Below are positions 2,301 to 60,492 of a stretch of DNA of 64,000 nt, piece by piece. Position 1 is the stretch's first letter; every line of letters starts with the position of its first letter. The translations under genes were made by a program, and so were the position numbers. The notes under the pieces are model-generated. The model was not told the DNA's origin, searched no databases, and saw only the letters and a list, made by a program, of their open reading frames with translations. This DNA is from Eledone cirrhosa (Eukaryota), in contig OZ024740.1 in the NCBI GenBank assembly GCA_964016885.1, forward strand, positions 269,452,001-269,516,000. The letters run 5' to 3'.

Positions 2301-3362
<1,062 letters not shown>

Positions 3363-5579
3363 ATTGGAATAAATGCTCTGAAATAGCGATATATATGTGA
3401 ATATAGACATAGAATATTCGAAAATATTCTGTATGTTTATAATAAACATTTTGAAGACCTAATCGCTATAGAATAGAATACGTCACGTATTACAATTAGA
3501 TTCTCGACAAAAGCAAGGGAAGTAATCAACGCGTTTCATTCTCGTTAGAAATCATCAGGACTACATATCCAGTGCTTTTATCGAGAATGACACAGCTAGA
3601 GACTTATAGAATACTTAGCTGTGTACAGGAACTGGTTTGAAAGAGCGGTTGCCGGTCCGGCAGAAATTAGAAATTGGAATAAATGCTCTGAAATAGCGAT
3701 ATATATGTGAATATAGACATAGAATATTCGAAAATATTCTGTATGTTTATAATAAACATTTTGAAGACCTAATCGCTATAGAATAGAATACGTCACGTAT
3801 TACAATTAGATTCTCGACAAAAGCAGGGAAGTAATCAACGCGTTTCATTCTCGTTAGAAATCATCAGGACTACATATCCAGTGCTTTTATCGAGAATGAC
3901 ACAGCTAGAGACTTATAGAATACTTAGCTGTGTACAGGAACTGGTTTGAAAGAGCGGTTGCCGGTCCGGCAGAAATTAGAAATTGGAATAAATGCTCTGA
4001 AATAGCGATATATATGTGAATATAGACATAGAATATTCGAAAATATTCTGTATGTTTATAATAAACATTTTGAAGACCTAATCGCTATAGAATAGAATAC
4101 GTCACGTATTACAATTAGATTCTCGACAAAAGCAAGGGAAGTAATCAACGCGTTTCATTCTCGTTAGAAATCATCAGGACTACATATCCAGTGCTTTTAT
4201 CGAGAATGACACAGCTAGAGACTTATAGAATACTTAGCTGTGTACAGGAACTGGTTTGAAAGAGCGGTTGCCGGTCCGGCAGAAATTAGAAATTGGAATA
4301 AATGCTCTGAAATAGCGATATATATGTGAATATAGACATAGAATATTCGAAAATATTCTGTATGTTTATAATAAACATTTTGAAGACCTAATCGCTATAG
4401 AATAGAATACGTCACGTATTACAATTAGATTCTCGACAAAAGCAAGGGAAGTAATCAACGCGTTTCATTCTCGTTAGAAATCATCAGGACTACATATCCA
4501 GTGCTTTTATCGAGAATGACACAGCTAGAGACTTATAGAATACTTAGCTGTGTACAGGAACTGGTTTGAAAGAGCGGTTGCCGGTCCGGCAGAAATTAGA
4601 AATTGGAATAAATGCTCTGAAATAGCGATATATATGTGAATATAGACATAGAATATTCGAAAATATTCTGTATGTTTATAATAAACATTTTGAAGACCTA
4701 ATCGCTATAGAATAGAATACGTCACGTATTACAATTAGATTCTCGACAAAAGCAAGGGAAGTAATCAACGCGTTTCATTCTCGTTAGAAATCATCAGGAC
4801 TACATATCCAGTGCTTTTATCGAGAATGACACAGCTAGAGACTTATAGAATACTTAGCTGTGTACAGGAACTGGTTTGAAAGAGCGGTTGCCGGTCCGGC
4901 AGAAATTAGAAATTGGAATAAATGCTCTGAAATAGCGATATATATGTGAATATAGACATAGAATATTCGAAAATATTCTGTATGTTTATAATAAACATTT
5001 TGAAGACCTAATCGCTATAGAATAGAATACGTCACGTATTACAATTAGATTCTCGACAAAAGCAAGGGAAGTAATCAACGCGTTTCATTCTCGTTAGAAA
5101 TCATCAGGACTACATATCCAGTGCTTTTATCGAGAATGACACAGCTAGAGACTTATAGAATACTTAGCTGTGTACAGGAACTGGTTTGAAAGAGCGGTTG
5201 CCGGTCCGGCAGAAATTAGAAATTGGAATAAATGCTCTGAAATAGCGATATATATGTGAATATAGACATAGAATATTCGAAAATATTCTGTATGTTTATA
5301 ATAAACATTTTGAAGACCTAATCGCTATAGAATAGAATACGTCACGTATTACAATTAGATTCTCGACAAAAGCAAGGGAAGTAATCAACGCGTTTCATTC
5401 TCGTTAGAAATCATCAGGACTACATATCCAGTGCTTTTATCGAGAATGACACAGCTAGAGACTTATAGAATACTTAGCTGTGTACAGGAACTGGTTTGAA
5501 AGAGCGGTTGCCGGTCCGGCAGAAATTAGAAATTGGAATAAATGCTCTGAAATAGCGATATATATGTGAATATAGACAT
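3363..5579 (-). mobile_element. Left arm of the 310-bp hammerhead-containing tandem array (retrozyme-like), ~7.15 copies
   Basis: Unit starts at 3363, 3673, 3982 (after a 1-bp deletion), 4292, 4602, 4912, 5222 and 5532; copies are essentially identical. Confidence 0.9.
3501..3587 (-). ncRNA. Type I hammerhead ribozyme, first of 7 minus-strand copies (others 3811-3896, 4120-4206, 4430-4516, 4740-4826, 5050-5136, 5360-5446)
   Basis: Reverse complement of the fold described at 5809-5895. Confidence 0.85.
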
Positions 5580-7572
5580 CGAGAATCTAATTGTAATACG
5601 TGACGTATTCTATTCTATAGCGATTAGGTCTTCAAAATGTTTATTATAAACATACAGAATATTTTCGAATATTCTATGTCTATATTCACATATATATCGC
5701 TATTTCAGAGCATTTATTCCAATTTCTAATTTCTGCCGGACCGGCAACCGCTCTTTCAAACCAGTTCCTGTACACAGCTAAGTATTCTATAAGTCTCTAG
5801 CTGTGTCATTCTCGATAAAAGCACTGGATATGTAGTCCTGATGATTTCTAACGAGAATGAAACGCGTTGATTACTTCCCTTGCTTTTGTCGAGAATCTAA
5901 TTGTAATACGTGACGTATTCTATTCTATAGCGATTAGGTCTTCAAAATGTTTATTATAAACATACAGAATATTTTCGAATATTCTATGTCTATATTCACA
6001 TATATATCGCTATTTCAGAGCATTTATTCCAATTTCTAATTTCTGCCGGACCGGCAACCGCTCTTTCAAACCAGTTCCTGTACACAGCTAAGTATTCTAT
6101 AAGTCTCTAGCTGTGTCATTCTCGATAAAAGCACTGGATATGTAGTCCTGATGATTTCTAACGAGAATGAAACGCGTTGATTACTTCCCTTGCTTTTGTC
6201 GAGAATCTAATTGTAATACGTGACGTATTCTATTCTATAGCGATTAGGTCTTCAAAATGTTTATTATAAACATACAGAATATTTTCGAATATTCTATGTC
6301 TATATTCACATATATATCGCTATTTCAGAGCATTTATTCCAATTTCTAATTTCTGCCGGACCGGCAACCGCTCTTTCAAACCAGTTCCTGTACACAGCTA
6401 AGTATTCTATAAGTCTCTAGCTGTGTCATTCTCGATAAAAGCACTGGATATGTAGTCCTGATGATTTCTAACGAGAATGAAACGCGTTGATTACTTCCCT
6501 TGCTTTTGTCGAGAATCTAATTGTAATACGTGACGTATTCTATTCTATAGCGATTAGGTCTTCAAAATGTTTATTATAAACATACAGAATATTTTCGAAT
6601 ATTCTATGTCTATATTCACATATATATCGCTATTTCAGAGCATTTATTCCAATTTCTAATTTCTGCCGGACCGGCAACCGCTCTTTCAAACCAGTTCCTG
6701 TACACAGCTAAGTATTCTATAAGTCTCTAGCTGTGTCATTCTCGATAAAAGCACTGGATATGTAGTCCTGATGATTTCTAACGAGAATGAAACGCGTTGA
6801 TTACTTCCCTTGCTTTTGTCGAGAATCTAATTGTAATACGTGACGTATTCTATTCTATAGCGATTAGGTCTTCAAAATGTTTATTATAAACATACAGAAT
6901 TTATTATAAACATACAGAATATTTTCGAATATTCTATGTCTATATTCACATATATATCGCTATTTCAGAGCATTTATTCCAATTTCTAATTTCTGCCGGA
7001 CCGGCAACCGCTCTTTCAAACCAGTTCCTGTACACAGCTAAGTATTCTATAAGTCTCTAGCTGTGTCATTCTCGATAAAAGCACTGGATATGTAGTCCTG
7101 ATGATTTCTAACGAGAATGAAACGCGTTGATTACTTCCCTTGCTTTTGTCGAGAATCTAATTGTAATACGTGACGTATTCTATTCTATAGCGATTAGGTC
7201 TTCAAAATGTTTATTATAAACATACAGAATATTTTCGAATATTCTATGTCTATATTCACATATATATCGCTATTTCAGAGCATTTATTCCAATTTCTAAT
7301 TTCTGCCGGACCGGCAACCGCTCTTTCAAACCAGTTCCTGTACACAGCTAAGTATTCTATAAGTCTCTAGCTGTGTCATTCTCGATAAAAGCACTGGATA
7401 TGTAGTCCTGATGATTTCTAACGAGAATGAAACGCGTTGATTACTTCCCTTGCTTTTGTCGAGAATCTAATTGTAATACGTGACGTATTCTATTCTATAG
7501 CGATTAGGTCTTCAAAATGTTTATTATAAACATACAGAATATTTTCGAATATTCTATGTCTATATTCACATA
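5579..7572 (+). mobile_element. Right arm of the same 310-bp array in inverted orientation, ~6.4 copies
   Basis: Reverse complement of the left-arm monomer. GAGAATCTAA recurs at 5581, 5891, 6201, 6511, 6821, 7151 and 7461; one 20-bp duplication at 6901-6920. Confidence 0.9.
5809..5895 (+). ncRNA. Type I hammerhead ribozyme, first of 6 plus-strand copies (others 6119-6205, 6429-6515, 6739-6825, 7069-7155, 7379-7465)
   Basis: Core CTGATGA (5838-5844) and GAAA (5859-5862). Stem II TTCT-AACG-AGAA; palindromic CGCG in helix III; UU cleavage site (cut after 5868). Stem I GTAGTC/GATTAC is extended by GGA/TCC and a 15-bp helix TTCTCGATAAAAGCA/TGCTTTTGTCGAGAA. Confidence 0.88.
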
Positions 7573-11755
<4,183 letters not shown>

Positions 11756-12387
11756 TCAGATGTTGTTTACTCGAGAGAAGGCTACGTTGGTATGGATGCG
11801 CATGAAAGTCGATAGCTGTATAACAAAGTGCAGGGCAATAAAGATAGACGGTAGTCACGGAATAGGCAGACCTAGAAAAACCTGGGACGAGCTGATAAAC
11901 TCCGACATCACACACTTACACCTCTCCAAGACAATGTCACTGGACCGAGACCTTTGGCGGTACTCAGTAACAGAGAAGACCCGCCTTACCTAAATATATA
12001 GTAAAACCTACTCCAGCCAGTAGGCATCTCTAACAAAATACACCCCGTCCCACCACCACCACCCCCACCCCATCCACACCACCCCGTTCTATCTAAAGTT
12101 ATGTTGGTGCCGCGCCACCCAGGCCGAAACAAATGAGATCGTGTAGGTGTCACGACAAAAAAACACACAGTCCACGCTGTAATGTGGGCGTGTAGGCAAC
12201 ACGGTAAAAACCTCCCAGACCCACACTGTAAATGTGGTTGGTGTTAGGAAGGGCATCCAACTGTAGAAAACCTGCCAGACTGTCCTATGCGAGCAAGACA
12301 ATCACTCTTGCCTCAAGTGGGACTACCCCCGTCCAAACCCATGCAAGCGTGGAACACGGACGTTAAACGTTGATGATGATGATGATG

Positions 12388-23533: not shown

Positions 23534-23550
23534 AACACTCCCACACACTC

Positions 23551-23685
23551 ACATGGCTTAGTGGTTAGAGCATTGGGCTTGCAATCGAAAGGTTGTGAGT
23601 TCAATTCTCAGACTGGGTGATGTGTTTCCTTGAGCAAGACACTTTATTTTACATTGCTCCAGTTTACTCAGCTGTAGAAATGAGA
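23551..23685 (+). mobile_element. tRNA-derived SINE head (CORE/V-like)
   Basis: TGGCTTAGTGG A box, GAGTTCAATTC B box, followed by CCTTGAGCAAGACACTT. Confidence 0.65.
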
Positions 23686-37472: not shown

Positions 37473-37787
37473 AAACTCTTTTAACCATCTTTTGATCTTA
37501 TATTATTTATACTCCAGTCCTATAAACTGTTGAGTGCTACTTATCCGATATTTGCATTGCTTTATTGTGCTACAATAAAACTCACCTCCTACATATATAT
37601 ATATATATATATGTGTGAAGTAATTCCGTCGGAAAAGTCCAGGAAAAAAGAGTGCTCTATGTAGGTAACAGAGCTTAATTATTATTATGTAATAAACAAC
37701 ATAAGGCAATTATTCCATTTACCAGTGGTTTCTTAAAAGCAAAAGGTTTTGCTTTCAATCCTCAGAATGAAAAAAAATATATATATA

Positions 37788-37943
37788 CAAGGGTCGGATG
37801 AAAAGTTCATAGGCTGACTATGAATGACTGATGCTAGAACTGTGGAATCTTGCATTGTTTCTTACGAGAGACTATACTGAAAAATAAACCCCATGTTCAT
37901 GAGAATATCTTTGTCAGCCTATGAACTTTTCAGCCGAGCCTTG
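37788..37943. mobile_element. Mariner-type MITE
   Basis: 31-bp TIRs CAAGGGTCGGATGAAAAGTTCATAGGCTGAC with 2 mismatches; TA on the left flank. Confidence 0.8.
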
Positions 37944-50176: not shown

Positions 50177-53100
50177 CTTTCTTTATTAACCACAAGGGTT
50201 TACATGAAGTAGACATTAAGGACAGTACAGGACAATACAGGACGGTACAAATGGTCATTTCTGCGTGTAAAAAAAACAGGATGTAATAAAAATAACAATG
50301 AAAACTTCCCCAATAGGGGGAAGGCTTCCGAAGGACATTTGTGGAGAAAGCCCATTAAAAGGCCACAGTGACCCAGACCACCAGGGCAAGTGCCCTCTCC
50401 CAGTTTTCCACCTTTAATTTAAAGACACATACTCAGAATAGTCCCATTCACTCGGGCCATACTTGCTTCTCTCACCCACCTTTCAACAAAATGCTGGGAA
50501 GACATCACTTCCCTCTCTACCCTGATTTTCCTTTTCAAATGAAATTTGAAAAAGTTAATCAGGGCATCACCGAAGAGGTAAGTGATCGTCTTCAGCCCTT
50601 TCAAACGTGTCCACCATACTATCTCTTTCGCCATGGCCACCAGACAGATAAAAACTGCCTGCCCTTCCCGGCTAGAGGAAGAGGGCGGGGCAATCCTCAC
50701 GATGGACTCAGCTGATAGCTGTATCCGTCCTACACGTAACAGCAGGTGTTCGACATAAACCCACAAGTCAGCAATGCTCGGACACTGGACGAGTGCGTGC
50801 AGGACGGTTTCGTCACCCTGCACGCATCTCGGACATGCCCGGCTGACGGCACCCCCATGCCTGTAGAGTTTATCCCGAACTGGCAAAGCTCCTCGGTAGC
50901 ACCGCCAGGCCAGGGATTTCTGGAAGTTGTCCATAGGCCCCGGCCCGAAAGTCCTTCCTAAGAGATTGGCTAGTTGATTTTCGTCGACGCCTAGAGTTTC
51001 TCCAAGTACGTCGTCGCTCTTCCCCTCCACTAATCCTGTATAGAACGCCAAGGTGGAGTTTCCAACGATCACATTGCCCGATTGGTCGAGGGCTGTGAGC
51101 GCCTGAAGACATTCCAGTCTCCAAGCGCCTCTCTCGGTCTTCGCTTGACCCATGACTGCAGCTCCGTCAAGGGGACGAGCTGGGGAAAGACGCGTCTAGC
51201 AAACGGAGACAACACCTGATCACCGTCGAGGAAGAGGTGGAGATGTCGTAGCCGGAGCGCGTGTCTGCGCATCATCAGCCACGGCATGTCCAGCCCTCCA
51301 CATAGCGGGTGTTGACAGCAGATGGACCGCCTGACCATCGGATCACGTCCCTTCCACAAAAAGCGAAAGAGCAAACGCTCCAGCACAGTCACGCGAGGCT
51401 TAGGACAAGGCCCGATGGTCAGGCGGCAGTAGATGACGGACGCGATGTACGCATTCGCCACCTCCGCTCGACCTTTCAGGGATAGCTTCCTCTCTGCCCA
51501 TTTCTGAGTGAGAGAAGTCACTCTGCTCGTCACCTCGTCCCAGTTTTTGCCCGTCTGGAGGTCCGGACAGAACCAGACCCCTAACAATTTAACCGGTCCG
51601 TCCGTCCAGTGCCCGACGACGCTGTTGGACGGCATGGACATGCCTCTCCAGATGCCGAGCTGCAGGCCCACCGACTTTTCCTGGTTGATCATTGCTCCTG
51701 TCACCGATTCGTATTCTCTTATTGTGGTACTGATCGCCTCAATGTGTTTGGCGTTCGACACCACTACGGTGGCATCGTCCGCATATGCTGACACGGATCT
51801 TCTGCATCCAGTTGGCGCGGAACCCCCCTCAACGTCTCCAGTTTGTGCAGTAATGGCTCGAGAGTCAATACGTACAAGAGGAACGAGAGGGGACATCCTT
51901 GGCGGACCGAGCGCATGATGTTGAACGGTTCCGAAATGTGACCGTTCACTTTCACCACAGAGCAGATGTCGCTGTGCATGGCAGCGATCCAGCCTCTGAA
52001 GACAGGCCCAAAGCCAGCCGCCCTCAGGACTGCCACCAGATAACGATGGTCGACCCTATCGAAAGCTTTCGACTGATCTAAATTGATCAAAGACCCACCC
52101 GTGCCAGGTTCCCTAGCTACACTCTCCACGATGTATCGCATGAGGTGGAGGTTGTCGTGAATCGATCTGTTTCGAATGGCGCATGTTTGCGCCTCTCCCA
52201 CTAGACCACCAACGACAAGCGCCAATCTCTTTGCTAGCACCTTGGCCAAGATCTTGAACTCTGTGTTTAGCAGAGTTATGGGCCTGAAATTATCTATATT
52301 ATCCACCTTGTTCGGATCCTTTCTCAGCAGCGCCACCGCTCCTCTGTTGCCAGATGCAGTAGACGTCCGCCAAGAGGCCTCCAAACAAGTCTGGCATCTG
52401 TACGTAAAGTTCATAAGGCAGACCATCCAAACCAGGCGATTTACCCCTTGTGCAGCCAGTCATTGCCTCCCGTTTCTTCAGCGGCTGTTATCGGCTTTTC
52501 GCAACACTCCGCCTCAGTGGCCGAGATCCACAGCAGTCCGCCGAGGTAGACACTAAAGTCCATCCCTCGATCCTGCCCGCCGCTGCCCCCGAACAGCTGA
52601 GCGAAGTGTCGAGTAGCATGCGCCCGTCGTGGTCCACCAAAAACCGGATCGTTGCTTTGTTGCCACGACACGCTTCCGCCACTCGGGCCCATTGAATGGC
52701 TTTCGTGCCCTCGTGTCTGAGAGCACACACCCCAGCTTTGACAACGCAGCCTTCGTGCTTTGCATTGAAGAATTGATAAAGGGCCAATTTCACCGCAAGT
52801 ACGTCGGTCGCGATGCCTTTGCTAAGCGCCTCGTCCAATTTTCTAACTAGTTCTCCCTCTGCTCTATTTTTATCTATTGCAAAAGCCTTACTAAACCTAA
52901 TGCACTCTATTCTAATCGCTCATTTCAGAGCAAACCACCATTTGTTGTTGACGATGGCCCACTTCAACGCCCGCTTAACTAGTTCGCTAATCCGGTCTCT
53001 GTAGGTCTTGCCCGCTGTTAATGATGCGTTTAGCTTCCAGTAGCCGGGTCTTAGTCTATGAAGCTTATCTAAGTCAAGCTCACAGATCACGAATTTGTGG

Positions 53101-54413
53101 TCCGTGTAGCTGACTATCTTGAATTGTGGACAGCCTATGCTAGACCTATCTATTTCTCTACAAAATACTCTATGTAGATATGATCTGGATGACCCGATAC
53201 GGTTTGTCCAAGTCCACATTGGCACATTCGGGAAATCCAATTGGTACCTGTCAGACAGTTCAAAACGCCTGAGCAGGTTGGTGAGGCTCTTGCACCCTCC
53301 TCCCCTATCCGCTAATCCCACATAGTCCCAGCGTGCATCTAAGATCCCGTTCCAGTCGCCCACTAACACTAAAGAGCGGGACGTTCCAAGAAAGGTCTCC
53401 AGACGCCAGAAGAAATCAAGCCGCCCTGCTCCTGTCGTGGCATAGACGGCCACTAGCCTGAAACCTTGCCCGTCTCCGCTGGTCACGTCCAACACCACCA
53501 ACTTACCTTCTGGATCCAGGAAGATGGCTCGTATGGCGAGATCCAAATCTCTCCGAAAAAGCACAGCACCCCCCTCCTCCTGATCCAAGACGGCTGGGAG
53601 ATGCGTACACATCGTAGCGCTCGAAGATCGGTGCGAAGGCCCGTGCTTCGGAGGTTCTGGTCTCGCTAATGGCCACCACATCTATGTTAGTTGAGCAGGT
53701 GGCGCTGCTTCCATGACGACCCCAGGCCATGCGCATTTGTGCTGCCTATTCTGAGTGAGGTCATGTTGAAAAGGAGTGGAAAAATATGGGAAAGAACACT
53801 TACCTCACTTTTCGTAGGGGGGGGGGGAGTTTTTCCATCCTTCTCACTGCTTGTGGCCTCCTCCGGAAGGATGTCCCTATAAATCCTCCTGGAGAGTGTT
53901 TGTTGGAAGTCTCTGACGTCTTTGGGGAATTTTTGTTTTAGTGTCGTGTACGTTTTCTGTGTGTTGCGAGTGATTTGTATGTGTGGAGGTGGTGTGAATT
54001 TTGGGGGTGTTGTGTAGTCTTTTTCTGTGATGCTGGTGTTGTGTTGGATGTAGTGTAGTAATTGGTTGTTGTTCAAATTTAATTGTTTCTACTTTTGGCA
54101 CAAGGCCAGCAATTATCAGTACATTACTGGTACTTTATTTTATCGACCCCGTAAGGATGAAAGGCAAAGTTGACCTCGGCGGCATTTGAACTCAGAATGG
54201 AAAGGGCCGTAACTCTATGCGTCAAAGCATGACGTCCAACGCTCCACCGATACTGCCATTAATGCTGCGTAGTGTGTATCGTTTTGGTTGTTTTGTTTTG
54301 CTTTGTTTGCGTTTGTTGTGGGTTTGTTTCTGTTTCGCTTTTTGGTGACTTTTGTGGTGTTGGTGATGATGGTGTTGGGATTAATGATGGTGATGGTGTT
54401 GGTGTTTGTGGTG
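50129..54413 (-). pseudogene. Older, frameshifted copy of the L1/Tx1-type element, 5'-truncated within ORF1
   Basis: Colinear with 54727-58700; ORF2 is broken into several frames; AATAAA then an (ATT)n tail at 50129-50175. Confidence 0.92.
54079..54258 (-). mobile_element. Meta-type SINE inserted in the ORF1 remnant of the older Tx1 copy
   Basis: Family core present; TTAAT at both junctions. Confidence 0.8.
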
Positions 54414-54465
<52 letters not shown>

Positions 54466-54726
54466 TTTCTTTATTAACCACAAGGGTTTACATAAAGTAG
54501 ACATTAAGGACAGTGTAGGACAATGCAGGACGGTACAAATGGGCATTTCTGCGTGTAAAAAAAACAAAAATAGAGGATGTAACAAAAATAACAATGAAAA
54601 TAACAATGAAAAATTCCCCAATAGGGGGGAGACTTCGGAGGAACATTTGTGGAGAAAGCCCAGTAAAAAGCCACAATGACCCTGACCACCAAGGCAAGTG
54701 CCCTCTCCCAGTTTTCCACCTTTAGT

Positions 54727-57700
54727 TTACAGATATATACTCAGAGTCGGCCCATTCACTCGGGCCATTCTTGCTTCTCTCACCCATCTTTCAACAAAAT
54801 GCTGGGAAGAGAGCACTTCCTTCTCTACTCTGATTTTCCTTTTCAAATGAAATTTGAAAAAGTCAATCAGAGCATCACCGAAGAGGTAAGTGCTCGTCTT
54901 CAGCCCTTTCAAACGTGTCCACCATACTATCTCTTTCGCCATGGCCACCAGACAGATAAAAACTGCCTGCCCTTCCCGGCTAAAGGAGGAGGGCGGGGCA
55001 ATCCTCACGATAGACTCAGATGATAGCTGGATCCGTCCTAAACGCGACAGCAGGTGTTCGACATAAACCCACAAGTCAGCAATTTTCGGACACTGGACGA
55101 GTGCGTGCAGGACGGTTTCGTCGCCCTGCGCGCATCTCGGACATGCCCGGCTGACGGCACCTCCATGCCTGTAGAGTTTATCCCGAACTGGCAAGGCTCC
55201 TCGGTAGCACTGCCAGGCCAGAGATTTCTGGAAGTTGTCCATAGGCCCTGGCTCGAAGGTTCTTCCGAAGAGATTGGCTAGTTGATTTTCGTCGACGCCT
55301 AGAGTTTCCCCAAGTACGTCGTCGCTCTTCCCCTCCACTAATCCTCTATAGAACGCCGAGGTGGAGTTTCCACCGATCACATTGCCCGATTGGTCGAGGG
55401 CTGTGAGCGCCTGAAGACATTCCAGTCTCCAGGCGCTCCCTCTCGGTCTTCGCTTGACCCAGGACTGCAGCTCCGTCAAGGAAACGAGCTGGGGAAAAAC
55501 GCGTCTAGCAAACGGCGACCACACCTGATCACCGTCGAGGAAGAGGTGGAGATGTCGTAGCCTGAGCGCGTGCCTGCGCATCATCAGCCACGGCATGCCC
55601 AGCCCTCCACGTAGCGGGTGTTGACAACAGATGGACCGCCTGACCATCGGAGCACGTCCCTTCCACAAAAAGCGAAAGAGCAAACGCTCCAGCGCAGTCA
55701 GGCGAGGCTTAGGACAAGGTACGACGGTTAGGCGGTAGCAGATGACAGACGCGATGTACGCGTTAGCCACCTCCGCTCGACCTTTCAGGGATAGCTTCCT
55801 CTCCGCCCATTTCTGGGTGAGAGAAGCCACCCTGCTCGTCACCTCGTCCCAGTTTTTGTCCGTCTGGAGGTCCGGACCGAACCAGACCCCTAGCAATTTA
55901 ACCGGTCCGTCCGTCCAGCGCCCGACGACGCTGTTGGACGGCATGGACCTGCCTCTCCAGGTGCCGAGCTGCAGGCCCACTGACTTTTCCTGGTTGATCA
56001 TTGCTCCTGTCACCGCTTCGTATTCTCTTAGTGTAGTGCCGATCGCCTCGATGTGTTTGGCGTTCGACACCACTACGGTGACATCGTCCGCATATGCTGA
56101 CACGGATCTTCCGCATCCTAGTTCGCGCGGGACTCCCCTCAACGTCTCCAGTTTGTGCAGTAATGGCTCGAGAGTCAATACGTACAAGAGGGACGAGAGG
56201 GGACATCCTTGGCGGACCGAACGCATGATGTTGAACGGTTCCGACAGGTGACCGTTCACTCTCACCACAGAGCAGATGTCGCTGTGCATGGCAGCGATCC
56301 AGCCTCTGAAGACGGGCCCAAAGCCAGCCGCCCTCAGGACTGCCGCTAGGTAACGATGGTCGACCCTATCGAAAGCTTTCGACTGATCTAAATTGATCAA
56401 GGACCCACCCGTGCCAGGTTCCCTAGCTACCCTCTCTACGATGTATCGCATGAGGTGGAGGTTGTCGTGGATGGATCTGTCGGGAATGGCGCATGTCTGC
56501 GCCTCTCCCACCAGACCACCAACGACAAGCGCCAACCTCTTTGCTAGCACCTTGGCCAAAATCTTAAACTCTGTGTTTAGCAGAGTTATGGGCCGGAAAT
56601 TGTCTATGTTATCCCCCTTGTTCGGATCCTTTCTCAGCAGTGCCACCGCTCCTCGGCTCACAGAACTGGGAATTCTCCCGTTCTGTTGCCAGTTGCAGTA
56701 GACGTCCGCCAAGAGGCCTCCGAACAAGTCTGGCATCTGTACGTAAAGTTCATAGGGCAGACCATCCAAACCAGGCGATTTACCCCTTGTGCAGCCAGTC
56801 ATTGCCTCCCGTACTTCAGCGGCTGTTATCGGCTTTTCGCAACACCTCGCCTCAGTGGCCGAGAGCCGCGGCAGTCCGTCGAGGTAGACACTAAAGTCCA
56901 TCCCTCTACCCGGCCCGCCGCTGCCCCCGAACAGCTGAGCGAAGTGTCGCTGAAAAGCTTCACACATTTGCCCGGGATCGAGTAGCATGCGCCCGTCGTG
57001 GTCCACCAAAGACCGGATCGTGGCTTTGTTGCCACGACGCGCCTCCGCCACTCGGGCCCATTGAACGGCTTTCGTCCCCTCGTGTCTGAGAGCACGCACC
57101 CTAGCTCTGACAACGCAGCCTTCGTGCTTTGCATTGAAGAATTGGTCAAGGGCCAATTTCGCCGCAAGCACGTCGGTCGCAATGCCTTTGCTAAGCGCCT
57201 CGTCTAATTTTCTAACTAGTTCTCCCTCTGCTCTATTTTTCTCTATTGCTAAAGCCTTACTAAACCTAATCGATTCTATTCTAATCGCTCTTTTCAGAGC
57301 AAACCACCACTTGTTGTTGACGATGGCCCCCGTCAACGCCCGCTTAACTAGTTCGCTAATCCGGTCTCTGTAGGCCTTGCGCGCTGGTAAGGACGCGTTT
57401 AGCTTCCAGTAGCCGGGTCCTCGTCTATGAAGCCTATCTAAGTCAAGCACACAGGTCACGAATTTGTGGTCCGTGTAGCTGACTATCTTGAATTGTGGAC
57501 AGCCTATGCTAGACCTATCTATTTCCCTACAAAATACTCTATCTAGATATGATCTGGATGACCCTATGCGGTTTGTCCAAGTCCACATTGGCACATTCGG
57601 GAAATCCAATCGGTACCTGTCAGACAGTTCAAAACGCCTGAGCAGGTTGGTGAGGCTCTTGCACCCTCCACCCCTATCCGCTAATCCCACACAGTCCCAG

Positions 57701-58146
57701 CGTGCATCTAAGATCCCGTTCCAGTCGCCCACTAACACTAAAGAGCGGGACGTTCCAAGAAAGGTCTCCAGACGCCGGAAGAAATCAGGCCGCCCTGCTC
57801 CTGTCGGGGCATAGACGGCCACTAGCCTGAAAGCTTGCCCGTCTCCGCTGGTCACGTCCAGCACCACCAGCTTACCCTCTGGGTCCAGGAAGATGGCCCG
57901 TATGGCGAGATCCAAACCTCTCCGAAAAAGCACAGCAACTCCTCCACCCGATCCAGGACGGCTGGGAGATGCGTACACATCGTAGCCGCCGAAGATCGGT
58001 GCGAAGGCCCGTGCTTCGGAGATTCTGGTCTCGCTGATGGCCACTACATCTATGTTTAGTGACCTGAGGTCGTTGAGCAGGTGACCCTGCTTCCATGACG
58101 ACCCCAAGCCACGCGCATTTATGCTGCCTATTCTGAGTGAGGTCAT
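54727..58146 (-). CDS. ORF2: AP endonuclease, reverse transcriptase and C-terminal zinc-binding domain (1139 aa)
   Basis: NARGL, SET, VYAP, GDWN, SYLDRVF, TDHK (APE); KSPGLDGL, FRPITLLN, DQSKAFD, VRQGCPLS, YADD (RT); CPRC...ETVLHALVQC. Confidence 0.95.
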   Translation of the reverse strand: MTSLRIGSINARGLGSSWKQGHLLNDLRSLNIDVVAISETRISEARAFAPIFGGYDVYASPSRPGSGGGVAVLFRRGLDLAIRAIFLDPEGKLVVLDVTSGDGQAFRLVAVYAPTGAGRPDFFRRLETFLGTSRSLVLVGDWNGILDARWDCVGLADRGGGCKSLTNLLRRFELSDRYRLDFPNVPMWTWTNRIGSSRSYLDRVFCREIDRSSIGCPQFKIVSYTDHKFVTCVLDLDRLHRRGPGYWKLNASLPARKAYRDRISELVKRALTGAIVNNKWWFALKRAIRIESIRFSKALAIEKNRAEGELVRKLDEALSKGIATDVLAAKLALDQFFNAKHEGCVVRARVRALRHEGTKAVQWARVAEARRGNKATIRSLVDHDGRMLLDPGQMCEAFQRHFAQLFGGSGGPGRGMDFSVYLDGLPRLSATEARCCEKPITAAEVREAMTGCTRGKSPGLDGLPYELYVQMPDLFGGLLADVYCNWQQNGRIPSSVSRGAVALLRKDPNKGDNIDNFRPITLLNTEFKILAKVLAKRLALVVGGLVGEAQTCAIPDRSIHDNLHLMRYIVERVAREPGTGGSLINLDQSKAFDRVDHRYLAAVLRAAGFGPVFRGWIAAMHSDICSVVRVNGHLSEPFNIMRSVRQGCPLSSLLYVLTLEPLLHKLETLRGVPRELGCGRSVSAYADDVTVVVSNAKHIEAIGTTLREYEAVTGAMINQEKSVGLQLGTWRGRSMPSNSVVGRWTDGPVKLLGVWFGPDLQTDKNWDEVTSRVASLTQKWAERKLSLKGRAEVANAYIASVICYRLTVVPCPKPRLTALERLLFRFLWKGRAPMVRRSICCQHPLRGGLGMPWLMMRRHALRLRHLHLFLDGDQVWSPFARRVFPQLVSLTELQSWVKRRPRGSAWRLECLQALTALDQSGNVIGGNSTSAFYRGLVEGKSDDVLGETLGVDENQLANLFGRTFEPGPMDNFQKSLAWQCYRGALPVRDKLYRHGGAVSRACPRCAQGDETVLHALVQCPKIADLWVYVEHLLSRLGRIQLSSESIVRIAPPSSFSREGQAVFICLVAMAKEIVWWTRLKGLKTSTYLFGDALIDFFKFHLKRKIRVEKEVLSSQHFVERWVREARMARVNGPTLSIYL

Positions 58147-58181
58147 GTTTAAAATAGAGTGGAAAAGATGGGAAAGACCAC

Positions 58182-60278
58182 TTACCGTACTTTTGGTAGA
58201 GGAGGGATGGTTTTTACATCCCTTTTCACTTGATCGTCTGGTGAAGGGACCGTTGAATCGTCCCTTCGGCTGGTCGTCGGCTCTTCTAAGAGAATGTCTG
58301 AATATACTCTTCGATTAATGGTTCCTCCTAGGTCCCTGAAATCACCAACTGCGTTGGGGAATTTCGTTTTAATGTTTGTGTATTGTTTCTGTGCTATTTT
58401 TAGCAGTCTTATGTTAGTTGGCGTTTTGATTGGTGCTGGTATTATGTAGTCCTGTTGTGAAATGTCTGTGTGTTCAATTATGTAAGTCATTAGTTTCTTG
58501 TTGTGTGTGTTTATTGCCGTGCATTTGTTTTTCTGGGGGTGGGGTGTGGTTCTGCTATTTTCTTGTCGTTGTTGCTGGGTGTGTGTGTTTTGTTGTTGTG
58601 TTTGCGATGTTGGTGCTTGTGGTGGTGGTGTTGAAGGTGTTGTTGGCGGTGGGGTTGTCGCCGGTGGTGATGGTGGTGCTGGTGTGGGTGGTGATGGTGT
58701 TGGTGGTGTTGCTGCTGTGGGTCTCTTTGCAGTAGACTTTACCCTTTTCTCATTTCTTTCCTCCCTTTTCAAAGGCGACGATGCGCTGCTTCTGCGTTTG
58801 TGCCTTCTTGCGACCTTTTGCCATCCCTCTCCCACCTCACACTCCATGTCTGATTCTGTAAGGTCGGGGAGGGGTACCAGCTCCACTCTTTCACTTGTTG
58901 TTGTTGGTGATGTTTGCACTGGAGTCTCTGTTGCAGCTGCATTTGGTATTGCTGTTGTTGTTGTTAATATTTCCACTGCTGCTGCTGTCTTTGATTTCCG
59001 TGGAGTGGGTATGGGTGCCACGGACCTATCGTTCCTGGTTGCCGCTTGTCCTGTTGCTGGTAGCCGTGGAGCCGGATTCGGAAGGAGGGGGGTTTTCTCC
59101 TTTCTCAGGGTCTTCTCGTTGCAGAAGGCCCTGAGGTGAGTCTTCGATCCACAGCGAAAGCATTTCGGGCGTTTGCCCTCAACACTTATGGGCAGTTGAG
59201 TGCCGTTATCGAAGTCTATCACATCCGGGATAGCTTCGATGCACTCCTGGTTGGTTTGGATTAGCATCTCAATGGAGGAGCCGACCCAATCTTCTCTTAC
59301 TTTTTTCTGTACTTGCAGTACAGTTGTTTTGTCCTCGATTCCGACGAGGACAGACGCGGCCAGCCAAGAAGGGGTCATTCCGGGGGGGACGTGGGTCAGT
59401 TTGACCCTCACAATTTTTTGCCCGCAGTAGGAGGGCACCAACACCATTTCCTCGCTCCTTAGGGTCACTACTGATTGGGCCTTTGCCTCCTGGGGTGTGG
59501 CAAAAAGTACGTCTACGGTGGCGTATTTTTTGCCTCGGGTGATGTGCGTTTTCCTCTGCCACACAGACCCCAAGGCTTTTTGTATTTGGGCCTCTGTGGC
59601 TCTTTCCACCCTACGGGATTTTGCACTTACTGTACGGTACGTGACCGTACAGTGCTCTTGGGTTTCGAAAAAATTTTTCGCTGCCTTGCAGATTGCTCGG
59701 TGTCCGTTCTTTGTCACCATCTTCTTCGCTTCCTCTAATTCCTCATTTGTTATGAGGATTGTTTCCAAGTTTTTCGCAATACCTGCAAATGAGATTGGTT
59801 TTTCTCTGCTGTTGTTGTTGTCGTCAGAGCTGCTGGTACTTTTGTTGTTGCTGCAGGTACTACGACTACTGCCTCCGCCGCTGTTGCTGTGGTTGTTGTT
59901 GGTGTTGCTGCTGCTAATGCTGTTGTTGTTTATGCTGCTGGTGATGCTGTTGCGGCTGCTACTGTTGTTTTCATTGTCACTGTTGCTGTTGTTATTACGG
60001 CTGCTACTGCTATTATTCCTGACGTCAGACGAATGAACTGGGTTTTCGTATTTCCCGCACACCTGTTTCGTCGCTGTCGTCGTCGTCGTGGTGAAACCTT
60101 GCACGCTTTGCACGAGACTTTTCTTTTCTTTCGTCACTTGCGAAAGAGAAGGGAGGGAGAGAGACACATTTAAAGAAGGGAGGGAGAGAGACAATCTTCT
60201 CTCTGCTGTAGTGATGATTGAGGAAGAAGAAGACGGAATGAGTGGGAGTGACGTATGAAATTTCATTTTCGTAGCCAT
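58182..60278 (-). CDS. ORF1: gag-like nucleic-acid-binding protein with one CCHC zinc knuckle (698 aa)
   Basis: CFRCGSKTHLRAFC knuckle, Asn/Ser-rich N-terminus and Pro/Thr-rich C-terminus; ends 35 nt upstream of the ORF2 start. Confidence 0.88.
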   Translation of the reverse strand: MATKMKFHTSLPLIPSSSSSIITTAERRLSLSLPSLNVSLSLPSLSQVTKEKKSLVQSVQGFTTTTTTATKQVCGKYENPVHSSDVRNNSSSSRNNNSNSDNENNSSSRNSITSSINNNSISSSNTNNNHSNSGGGSSRSTCSNNKSTSSSDDNNNSREKPISFAGIAKNLETILITNEELEEAKKMVTKNGHRAICKAAKNFFETQEHCTVTYRTVSAKSRRVERATEAQIQKALGSVWQRKTHITRGKKYATVDVLFATPQEAKAQSVVTLRSEEMVLVPSYCGQKIVRVKLTHVPPGMTPSWLAASVLVGIEDKTTVLQVQKKVREDWVGSSIEMLIQTNQECIEAIPDVIDFDNGTQLPISVEGKRPKCFRCGSKTHLRAFCNEKTLRKEKTPLLPNPAPRLPATGQAATRNDRSVAPIPTPRKSKTAAAVEILTTTTAIPNAAATETPVQTSPTTTSERVELVPLPDLTESDMECEVGEGWQKVARRHKRRSSASSPLKREERNEKRVKSTAKRPTAATPPTPSPPTPAPPSPPATTPPPTTPSTPPPQAPTSQTQQQNTHTQQQRQENSRTTPHPQKNKCTAINTHNKKLMTYIIEHTDISQQDYIIPAPIKTPTNIRLLKIAQKQYTNIKTKFPNAVGDFRDLGGTINRRVYSDILLEEPTTSRRDDSTVPSPDDQVKRDVKTIPPLPKVR

Positions 60279-60492
60279 GTTGTTTTTTGTTTAAAATGAA
60301 TATTGGGTACAAAACCCCAATAACTGGTTATTTAACCCCGAAGGGCCAAATAACGGACAGAAAGACCCCTCTCACGAGGAGGAGGGTGTCTTTATCAACA
60401 ATTTGGTTCAAGTTTTAAACAATTTACAATTGTTTTAACGGTTAAAAATTACTATACCTTACAGAGCCGAGCCTCCGTCAACCATGGCATTC

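Follow-up and report, generated by a model that had tools for sequence, protein, structure and literature searches.

Metazoan non-LTR (long terminal repeat) retrozymes have already been described as a kind of their own, together with the hypothesis that Penelope-like elements (PLEs) mobilize them (PMC7229834; 10.64898/2026.07.22.740005). As far as the available parts of these two sources go, such retrozymes consist of low-GC units of 150–450 bp that are repeated in tandem, carry one type I hammerhead ribozyme each, contain no open reading frame (ORF), and occur in thousands of copies; the PLE route proposed for them leads from an RNA circle to tandem cDNA. Here, we analyze a stretch of 64,000 nucleotides from Eledone cirrhosa (GenBank assembly GCA_964016885.1, contig OZ024740.1, positions 269,452,001 to 269,516,000 of the forward strand; hereafter the window), in which a 310-bp repeat unit with a hammerhead motif extends from position 3363 to 7577. 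Judged by its sequence, the 310-bp family shows every feature of non-LTR retrozymes that can be tested in this way; it differs from the described examples in that no sequence link to a pseudo-LTR (pLTR) was found in the four PLE families compared. The original prediction, made from the window alone, had read the array as a retrozyme, and we hold this assignment to be very probable: the unit is non-coding, low in GC and tandem, its hammerhead covaries, its insertions are young and dispersed with ends of the PLE type, and the haplotype patterns are those to be expected if a monomer circle was copied. For the array as a whole we propose, with a probability of about 0.7, that it arose when a young non-LTR retrozyme family inserted once into a (TA)n tract, likely through a PLE reverse transcriptase (RT) that copied one circle from both sides of the cut. 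What appears to be new here are the paired fixed ends, the two-armed arrays, and the private-variant evidence, which together form an unusually clear mechanistic footprint. Two-armed inverted insertions, paired fixed ends, (TA)n targeting, and within-locus haplotypes are not described in the available parts of PMC7229834 and 10.64898/2026.07.22.740005; the words 'inverted' and 'microsatellite' do not occur in the main text of the former. Our literature search, made in a library without most subscription papers and Repbase, returned no account of this family, nor of two-armed retrozyme arrays, paired fixed ends, or private-variant evidence, with the proviso that the supplement of PMC7229834 may show such features.

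The second system of reference are the endonuclease-bearing PLEs, which the available parts of the following sources portray in some detail. They leave inverted copies with a tail of 30–40 bp, often at one end only (PMC8557442; PMC3846280), and a purified PLE protein, for which a dimer is predicted, cleaves AT-rich DNA on both strands, extends each of them, and begins at two positions of the RNA that delimit the tail (PMC11167929). The insertions analyzed here resemble them in the head-to-head inverted, 5′-truncated copy with a tail at one end, in the AT-rich or (TA)n targets, in the two RT start sites, and in the hammerhead near the 3′ end. They differ by having no ORF, arms of many turns, and a long stem I; moreover, the tail rule is near-absolute here, whereas it is frequent or optional there. 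A related process is the twin priming of L1 elements: both target ends prime on one RNA and the two cDNAs join via microhomology, which yields a head-to-head inversion. Our insertions depart from this scheme in that they lack poly(A), start at fixed internal sites, and possess arms repeated many-fold, as a circle allows.

The array in the window is not the single tandem run of 13 copies that had been predicted, but consists of two arms joined head-to-head: The left arm (3363–5579, minus strand) contains 7.2 units with seven hammerheads, the right arm (5579–7577, plus strand) 6.4 units with six. The predicted period of 310 bp is thereby borne out, and the number 13 holds for the ribozymes, while the array comprises 11 complete monomers and ~13.6 units in total. 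The outer end of each arm, which is 3′ in the sense of the RNA, runs into (TA)n. The left arm ends at a position that we term site B (monomer nt 165), the right arm at site A (monomer nt ~133–139). The TA-rich microsatellites to the left (2301–3364) and right (7570–11756) each form half of the target; since both flanks have C interruptions on the same strand, a single tract was split. At the head-to-head junction (5576–5582), monomer nt ~118 meets nt 21 with a microhomology of 1–4 nt. As reference we use the monomer that extends from cut site to cut site at 5869–6178 (plus strand) and corresponds to the predicted 310-nt circle; in this internal unit, site A (AUAUAUAU, monomer nt 132–139) lies at 6000–6007 and site B (monomer nt 165–172) at 6033–6040, both on the plus strand. 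Among the 11 complete units from cut to cut, nine do not differ from one another; the other two each carry one of the differences noted originally, a 1-bp deletion at monomer nt 12 (3824–3827, minus strand) and a 20-bp tandem duplication (6880–6920, plus strand). Cleavage is predicted after 5868, 6178, 6488, 6798, 7128, and 7438 on the plus strand and at 5387, 5077, 4767, 4457, 4147, 3837, and 3528 on the minus strand; because the arms are inverted, read-through transcription would have to come from both directions. The GC content is 34% over positions 4001–6000, and the longest ATG-started ORF in the array has 30 aa, in agreement with the earlier finding of no meaningful coding frame. Accordingly, the array does not contain the ORF for RT and GIY-YIG endonuclease of an autonomous PLE. 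Neither did we see an LTR structure, as the array ends lie inside the unit (the primer binding site and the polypurine tract were not searched for separately), nor the type III hammerhead in two LTRs that characterizes plant LTR retrozymes: the topology is type I and the units are tandem.

This architecture recurs throughout the genome. The assembly of 3.0 Gb contains 14,941 exact GUA junction sites of the family, which amounts to ~4.6 Mb or ~0.15%, and the best 150 of 286 listed monomer matches are 99–100% identical; the 310-bp family is thus young, large, and dispersed over many loci. Its outer ends fall at two monomer positions, A (~nt 131–139) and B (nt 165–172), which are 26–33 nt apart, the interval between them corresponding to the tail, and exact junctions with (TA)n number 1,242 for A and 1,236 for B. 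The ends listed for the first 218 Mb of sequence C1 comprise 100 A and 92 B ends, with 64 pairs; from the overlap of listed A and B ends we estimate ~2,000 insertions. All 64 outward-facing pairs are A+B, and 36 A and 28 B ends stand without a listed partner, as exact patterns would predict. A partly overlapping set of 61 loci was examined individually and contained 59 inverted pairs, 55 of them A+B, none AA, none BB, and four that could not be resolved. Of 20 loci taken by best match, 18 carry inverted arms, and 37 of 40 taken as the first B ends on C1 have an inverted partner arm that ends at A; the remaining three comprise a gap in the assembly, an arm that is cut off, and a locus with one arm. 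At least one side of every inverted pair is a TA tract, and in 52 of the 59 both sides are; a target-site duplication is unreadable within (TA)n. The polarity of the flanks points to a pre-existing TA tract that was split in 4/4 decidable loci (55 were undecidable), and this equal polarity rules out a telomerase-like synthesis of the TA flanks. The inverted A+B structure is, by its sequence, the inversion-plus-tail signature of PLEs. Within the pairs, arms measure 0.3–18 units, one cut-off arm exceeds 20 units, and the median is 3.1 units for A arms and 4.8 for B arms. The inner junctions occur at positions all round the monomer, most of them with an overlap of 0–7 nt; inner ends are in some excess at monomer nt 10–30, a stem strand (17/118, p 0.003).

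Relatives of the family share part of these features. Older relatives with units of 317–320 bp account for 5,489 motif sites, mostly of one or two units (L152, L177–L194); they keep a B-like end at a similar distance as well as a covarying helix domain at A. Several of them have a damaged ribozyme core, and their short arrays may accompany the loss of the ribozyme. Further hammerhead retrozyme families have units of 466 and ~484 bp with ACUAGU in helix III, and several of their loci are inverted and lie in TA tracts (L049:1-2750; L055:400-4040; L057; L063; L069; L136; L179). The 484-bp unit holds an internal (TA)n of variable length.

We now turn to the ribozyme itself. The motif, of the form CUGAUGA...GAAACGCGUU, occurs 13 times in the array and folds in type I topology: Stem I has 6+3+16 bp, in line with the bulged stem of ~24 bp described before, helix II has four pairs over a U-U base, and helix III has one pair plus a palindromic loop, the palindrome being ACGCGU. 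In one such hammerhead (5810–5896, plus strand) the core starts at 5838 and the predicted cut follows 5868; at this position, H17 is U (GUU) in 13/13 motifs of the locus and A (GUA) in the family. GUU sites have lower hammerhead activity. The complete hammerhead of the original prediction is recovered as 13 covarying type I motifs, albeit with a one-pair helix III, a U-U pair at the base of helix II, and the GUU variant; likewise, the cleavage site GUU/GAUUAC lies where it was placed but is atypical, as the family has GUA/GAUUAC. In a subfamily, A-U is restored at the base of helix II; of the 4,093 pattern matches, the first 100 belong mostly to this subfamily. In PMC7229834, as far as available, two ribozymes of axolotl/newt satellites each show one of these weak features: HHR_Amex1 a one-pair helix III with a palindromic tetraloop, and HHR_Amex2 a U-U at the helix II base. 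Here both are combined in one ribozyme of an invertebrate. According to the same source, axolotl ribozymes with weak helices cleave well only as dimers, and most invertebrate hammerheads are efficient as monomers. For a transcript with two GUA ribozymes, the double hammerhead is the unconstrained minimum-energy fold (−109.9 vs −91.5 kcal/mol for two single folds), and on this basis the family ribozyme is predicted to act as a double hammerhead. In the corresponding GUU transcript, U17 is predicted to pair with A14 and an inactive fold is favored by 2.6 kcal/mol; the GUU of the window copy is hence predicted to weaken its ribozyme.

The search with the Rfam type I models that had been suggested for this array returned nothing at gathering score: the highest-scoring match, to HH9, reached 15.4 bits (E 0.84) where 52 were required, besides chance matches to Fluoride. 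The array sequence is nevertheless more than chance, as it has a stable fold (monomer folding z = −3.55; 0/100 shuffles equally stable) and stems that covary across related families. Covariation, the absence of which had been named among the grounds for abandoning the prediction, was assessed on a gapless alignment of 11 distinct motifs from the 310-bp family and the related 466- and 484-bp families: 95.7% of alignment cells are paired and 12 of 17 pairs are changed on both sides (slid controls 0–3), counts that overstate independence, because the scan demanded partial pairing and only ~3 lineages are independent. Within this set, the helix III palindrome ACGCGU is exchanged for ACUAGU. Moreover, the 11 core nucleotides are hit by none of 21 locus-fixed variant types and by two of 86 single-unit substitutions. 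A second structured region is a multi-helix RNA domain at monomer nt 59–144 (5927–6012, plus strand), in which 4/24 pairs are changed on both sides among 14 sequences. This conserved domain overlaps site A, lies just 5′ of site B, and is a candidate recognition element for the reverse transcriptase.

Whether the template was a circle can be judged from the variants that units of one locus share. In 33 of 35 pairs (those with both arms of at least 2.1 units), both arms carry one fixed haplotype, against a chance value of 0.11; 16 haplotypes were distinguished. The GUU triplet of the window is found at 14 exact sites genome-wide, 13 in the window array and one in a unit elsewhere. Of two further rare variants, one takes up two arrays in full and occurs besides in one isolated unit; the other takes up five arrays and also turns up in a run of two units and in eight units on their own. 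At the same time, 86 single-unit substitutions remain in ~596 units, so that gene conversion cannot be rapid. If a monomer is copied, a new mutation is expected to occupy both arms of an array in full, and the haplotype common to both arms together with the GUU nearly confined to this locus favors rolling-circle copying of one RNA circle, primed from both ends of the target; we consider a circular template probable. Apart from haplotype variants, the 586 crossings of the cut site are regular, and 2/118 inner ends lie no more than 5 nt from the cut, where 3.8 were expected; this points to a template that was closed or uncut at the ribozyme site. A cut linear monomer with template jumps was ruled out by these clean crossings and by the lack of an inner-end pile-up at the cut. 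Three of the 21 fixed variant types, the GUA/GUU difference included, lie at nt 310–2; we considered an error at the ligation junction as the origin of GUU, with two of the three variants being possibly selected stem changes. In three public runs labelled with three other organisms (X3, X4, X6), assembly gave one 340-nt contig each that closes at 310 and is at least 99% like the monomer; these were not used, as tandem DNA and a circle look alike in contigs. Another run (X1) gave a tangle of 562 variant contigs and was not used either.

Taken together, the following course of events may be envisaged. Neighboring units of a tandem transcript would form a double hammerhead that cleaves it at intervals of 310 nt, and a host ligase would close the cut monomer into a circle. 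A PLE RT-endonuclease, probably a dimer, would then bind the structured region before A and B and cut both (TA)n strands. Of the two target ends, one begins at site A, the other at B, a pattern that is seen directly and whose mechanistic explanation we infer; that both target ends were primed on one RNA seems to us somewhat favored. Each enzyme would roll round the same circle for up to ~20 turns until the two products meet, as the junctions display, at scattered monomer positions with an overlap of mostly 0–7 nt. In its most specific form, namely that the insertion is the frozen record of a ribozyme-made circle copied at once by both PLE subunits, each committed to a different start site, this scenario has about an even chance. 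The circle copied into the window would have carried GUU with its predicted weak cleavage, and the window copy may therefore be a poor parent.

Which PLE could have provided the enzyme? The genome-wide search for the monomer and linked PLEs that had been recommended returned the dispersed family described above and four PLE families beside the retrozymes. Three of them make inverted insertions with a short and a long end in (TA)n, with tails of 58, ~91, and ~43 nt. The 58-nt tail belongs to a PLE with an insertion in the fingers and a C-terminal endonuclease, 5/6 two-ended copies of which are short+long; it is young and abundant (42,890 candidates; L173:1-2658, L048:1380-4275) and has a long RT insertion between motifs A and B plus a C-terminal GIY-YIG and a hammerhead, a mix of features that does not fit the clade descriptions in the available part of PMC8557442. 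The ~91-nt tail was seen at one locus of a Hydra-like PLE. The ~43-nt tail, likewise from one locus, belongs to a fourth family with many identical-scoring copies, 900-aa frames, and inverted pairs. An older, 5′-truncated copy of this 43-nt family stands head-to-head, with no TA in between, with a ribozyme-less 163-bp tandem derivative of an older retrozyme relative (L194:900-1720 with L195); this chimera is one locus and might also be a nested insertion. The 43-nt-tail PLE is our best lead for the partner. By comparison, the 16 loci of a Neptune-like PLE (L141–L156) showed no inverted arm longer than 80 bp; this family is young and has (TA)n at its 3′ end. Clade names rest on the motifs described in PMC8557442, as far as available: Pfam returned one sub-threshold GIY-YIG match and one unrelated weak match for eight PLE fragments, and an Atlas search assigned the PLE sequences to unnamed or HTH_animal/RT/GIY-YIG clusters. 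Among 18 loci of older relatives, no PLE ORF is flanked by a matching repeat. At a further locus (L089:3400-5600), the 5′ end of a PLE copy is joined directly to a 484-type retrozyme fragment in the same orientation.

Several observations weigh against a circle copied by a PLE. No end of the four PLE families compared resembles the monomer above shuffle level, so that the partner PLE is unproven. Cleavage, expression, and circles are predictions for a system known from its sequence, and the covariation set behind the ribozyme was, as stated, preselected and narrow. According to the available parts of the respective sources, the PLE PAc inserts in vitro without ribozyme cleavage (PMC11167929), and 8/9 Xenopus retrozyme dimers did not cleave (10.64898/2026.07.22.740005). 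The 163-bp derivative at L194 implies that tandem copies can form without a hammerhead. Furthermore, two of the 35 loci are mosaics of two haplotypes (L037:3589-9290; L076:476-4494), in which the central haplotype differs from one or both outer parts in a manner that looks as if the center of the palindrome had been repaired from another locus, and at L065, L085, and L086 the same single-unit variant occurs in both arms. These mosaics and shared variants call for later gene conversion or recombination, template switching, or occasional multimer templates. Finally, the assembly could lack an array that was parent to the GUU variant. Much of this would suit the same retrozyme and PLE working on an uncut linear read-through of a parent array, with circles as a by-product or absent and arrays homogenized later by gene conversion: insertion from unprocessed RNA is what PAc does in vitro, the three loci with common variants, the two mosaics, and the ribozyme-less derivative fit, and the clean cut-site crossings fit equally well. 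Such a template would, however, leave unexplained why rare variants are fixed across both arms while the assembly holds no second GUU array, and why 35 loci present 16 homogeneous haplotypes; the persisting single-unit substitutions argue against rapid conversion, and arms longer than the parent array would be impossible. We therefore judge it unlikely.

Still less likely is an origin of the second arm from the first, in which one target end primes and the enzyme folds back on the cDNA or self-primes on antisense RNA, as proposed for PLEs in the available part of PMC3846280. This would account for shared haplotypes without two enzymes on one circle, for the near-mirror distances of the shared variant at L085 from the center (435 and 427 nt), and for the excess of inner ends in the stem strand at nt 10–30. 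Yet a copied arm cannot exceed the first, whereas the A arm is the longer one in 21/55 pairs and the B arm in 34/55; nor is there a reason for the second arm always to stop at the other site, the shared variant at L086 is not mirror-placed, and the junction positions are scattered. A DNA-level repeat, be it a satellite, a miniature transposable element with inverted repeats (MITE), or a foldback element that was amplified by unequal exchange and retains the hammerhead as a relic, would explain the tandem units, the overall palindrome, and the empty Rfam result, and Li et al. favor local amplification of pLTRs (10.64898/2026.07.22.740005, available part). However, the A+B rule already contradicts it: at ~2,000 dispersed loci the two ends are fixed and unequal, the inner junctions are free, and the length varies, and the matching terminal inverted repeats and fixed structure of MITEs or foldback elements are absent, as the ends differ by 26–33 nt in every resolved pair. 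With uniformity across inverted arms, covarying stems, and fixed variants that leave the core untouched, we regard this explanation as very improbable. An artefact of long-read fold-back or of assembly has next to no probability as the source of the inversion: no piece spans the junction among the contigs listed for four public runs, which is uninformative as the junction may be private to the individual, but length, end point, and flank are not the same in the two arms, and the end rule is followed on many chromosomes, by protein-coding PLEs as well.

The remainder of the window contains a hammerhead-like motif with a CUGAGGA core at 37720–37790 (minus strand), with related motifs in locus L072. 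A tRNA-like Rfam match (36.1 bits; 23547–23619, plus strand) is probably the head of a short interspersed element (SINE); in L052 and L090, similar sequence comes after TA tracts. Two tandem copies resembling long interspersed elements (LINEs) lie at 50422–60290 (minus strand), one of which has an endonuclease-RT frame of 1,195 aa with another frame of 702 aa upstream. By inspection, no host gene is seen in the window, and the ORFs outside the array resemble LINE fragments or low-complexity frames.

The genome contains young candidate enzymes with 900-aa frames, so that the system can be rebuilt in vitro. An RT that takes a circle as template and inserts as much as 6 kb of repeats into TA tracts would be attractive both as a tool and for the satellite-like DNA it gives rise to. 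Regarding PLEs, ~2,000 young A+B insertions bear on the cause of the inversion with its one-sided tail: they fit the two start sites and the predicted dimer described in the available part of PMC11167929; if our reading is true, the inversion and the one-sided tail would stem from asymmetric twin priming rather than from self-priming or endonuclease resolution. For retrozymes, movement via circles and PLE enzymes is proposed, not demonstrated, in the available parts of PMC7229834 and 10.64898/2026.07.22.740005, and the array-wide private variants reported here point to a circular template. If this holds true, the insertions would attest directly, at the level of the genome, that rolling-circle reverse transcription is the way in which retrozymes spread.

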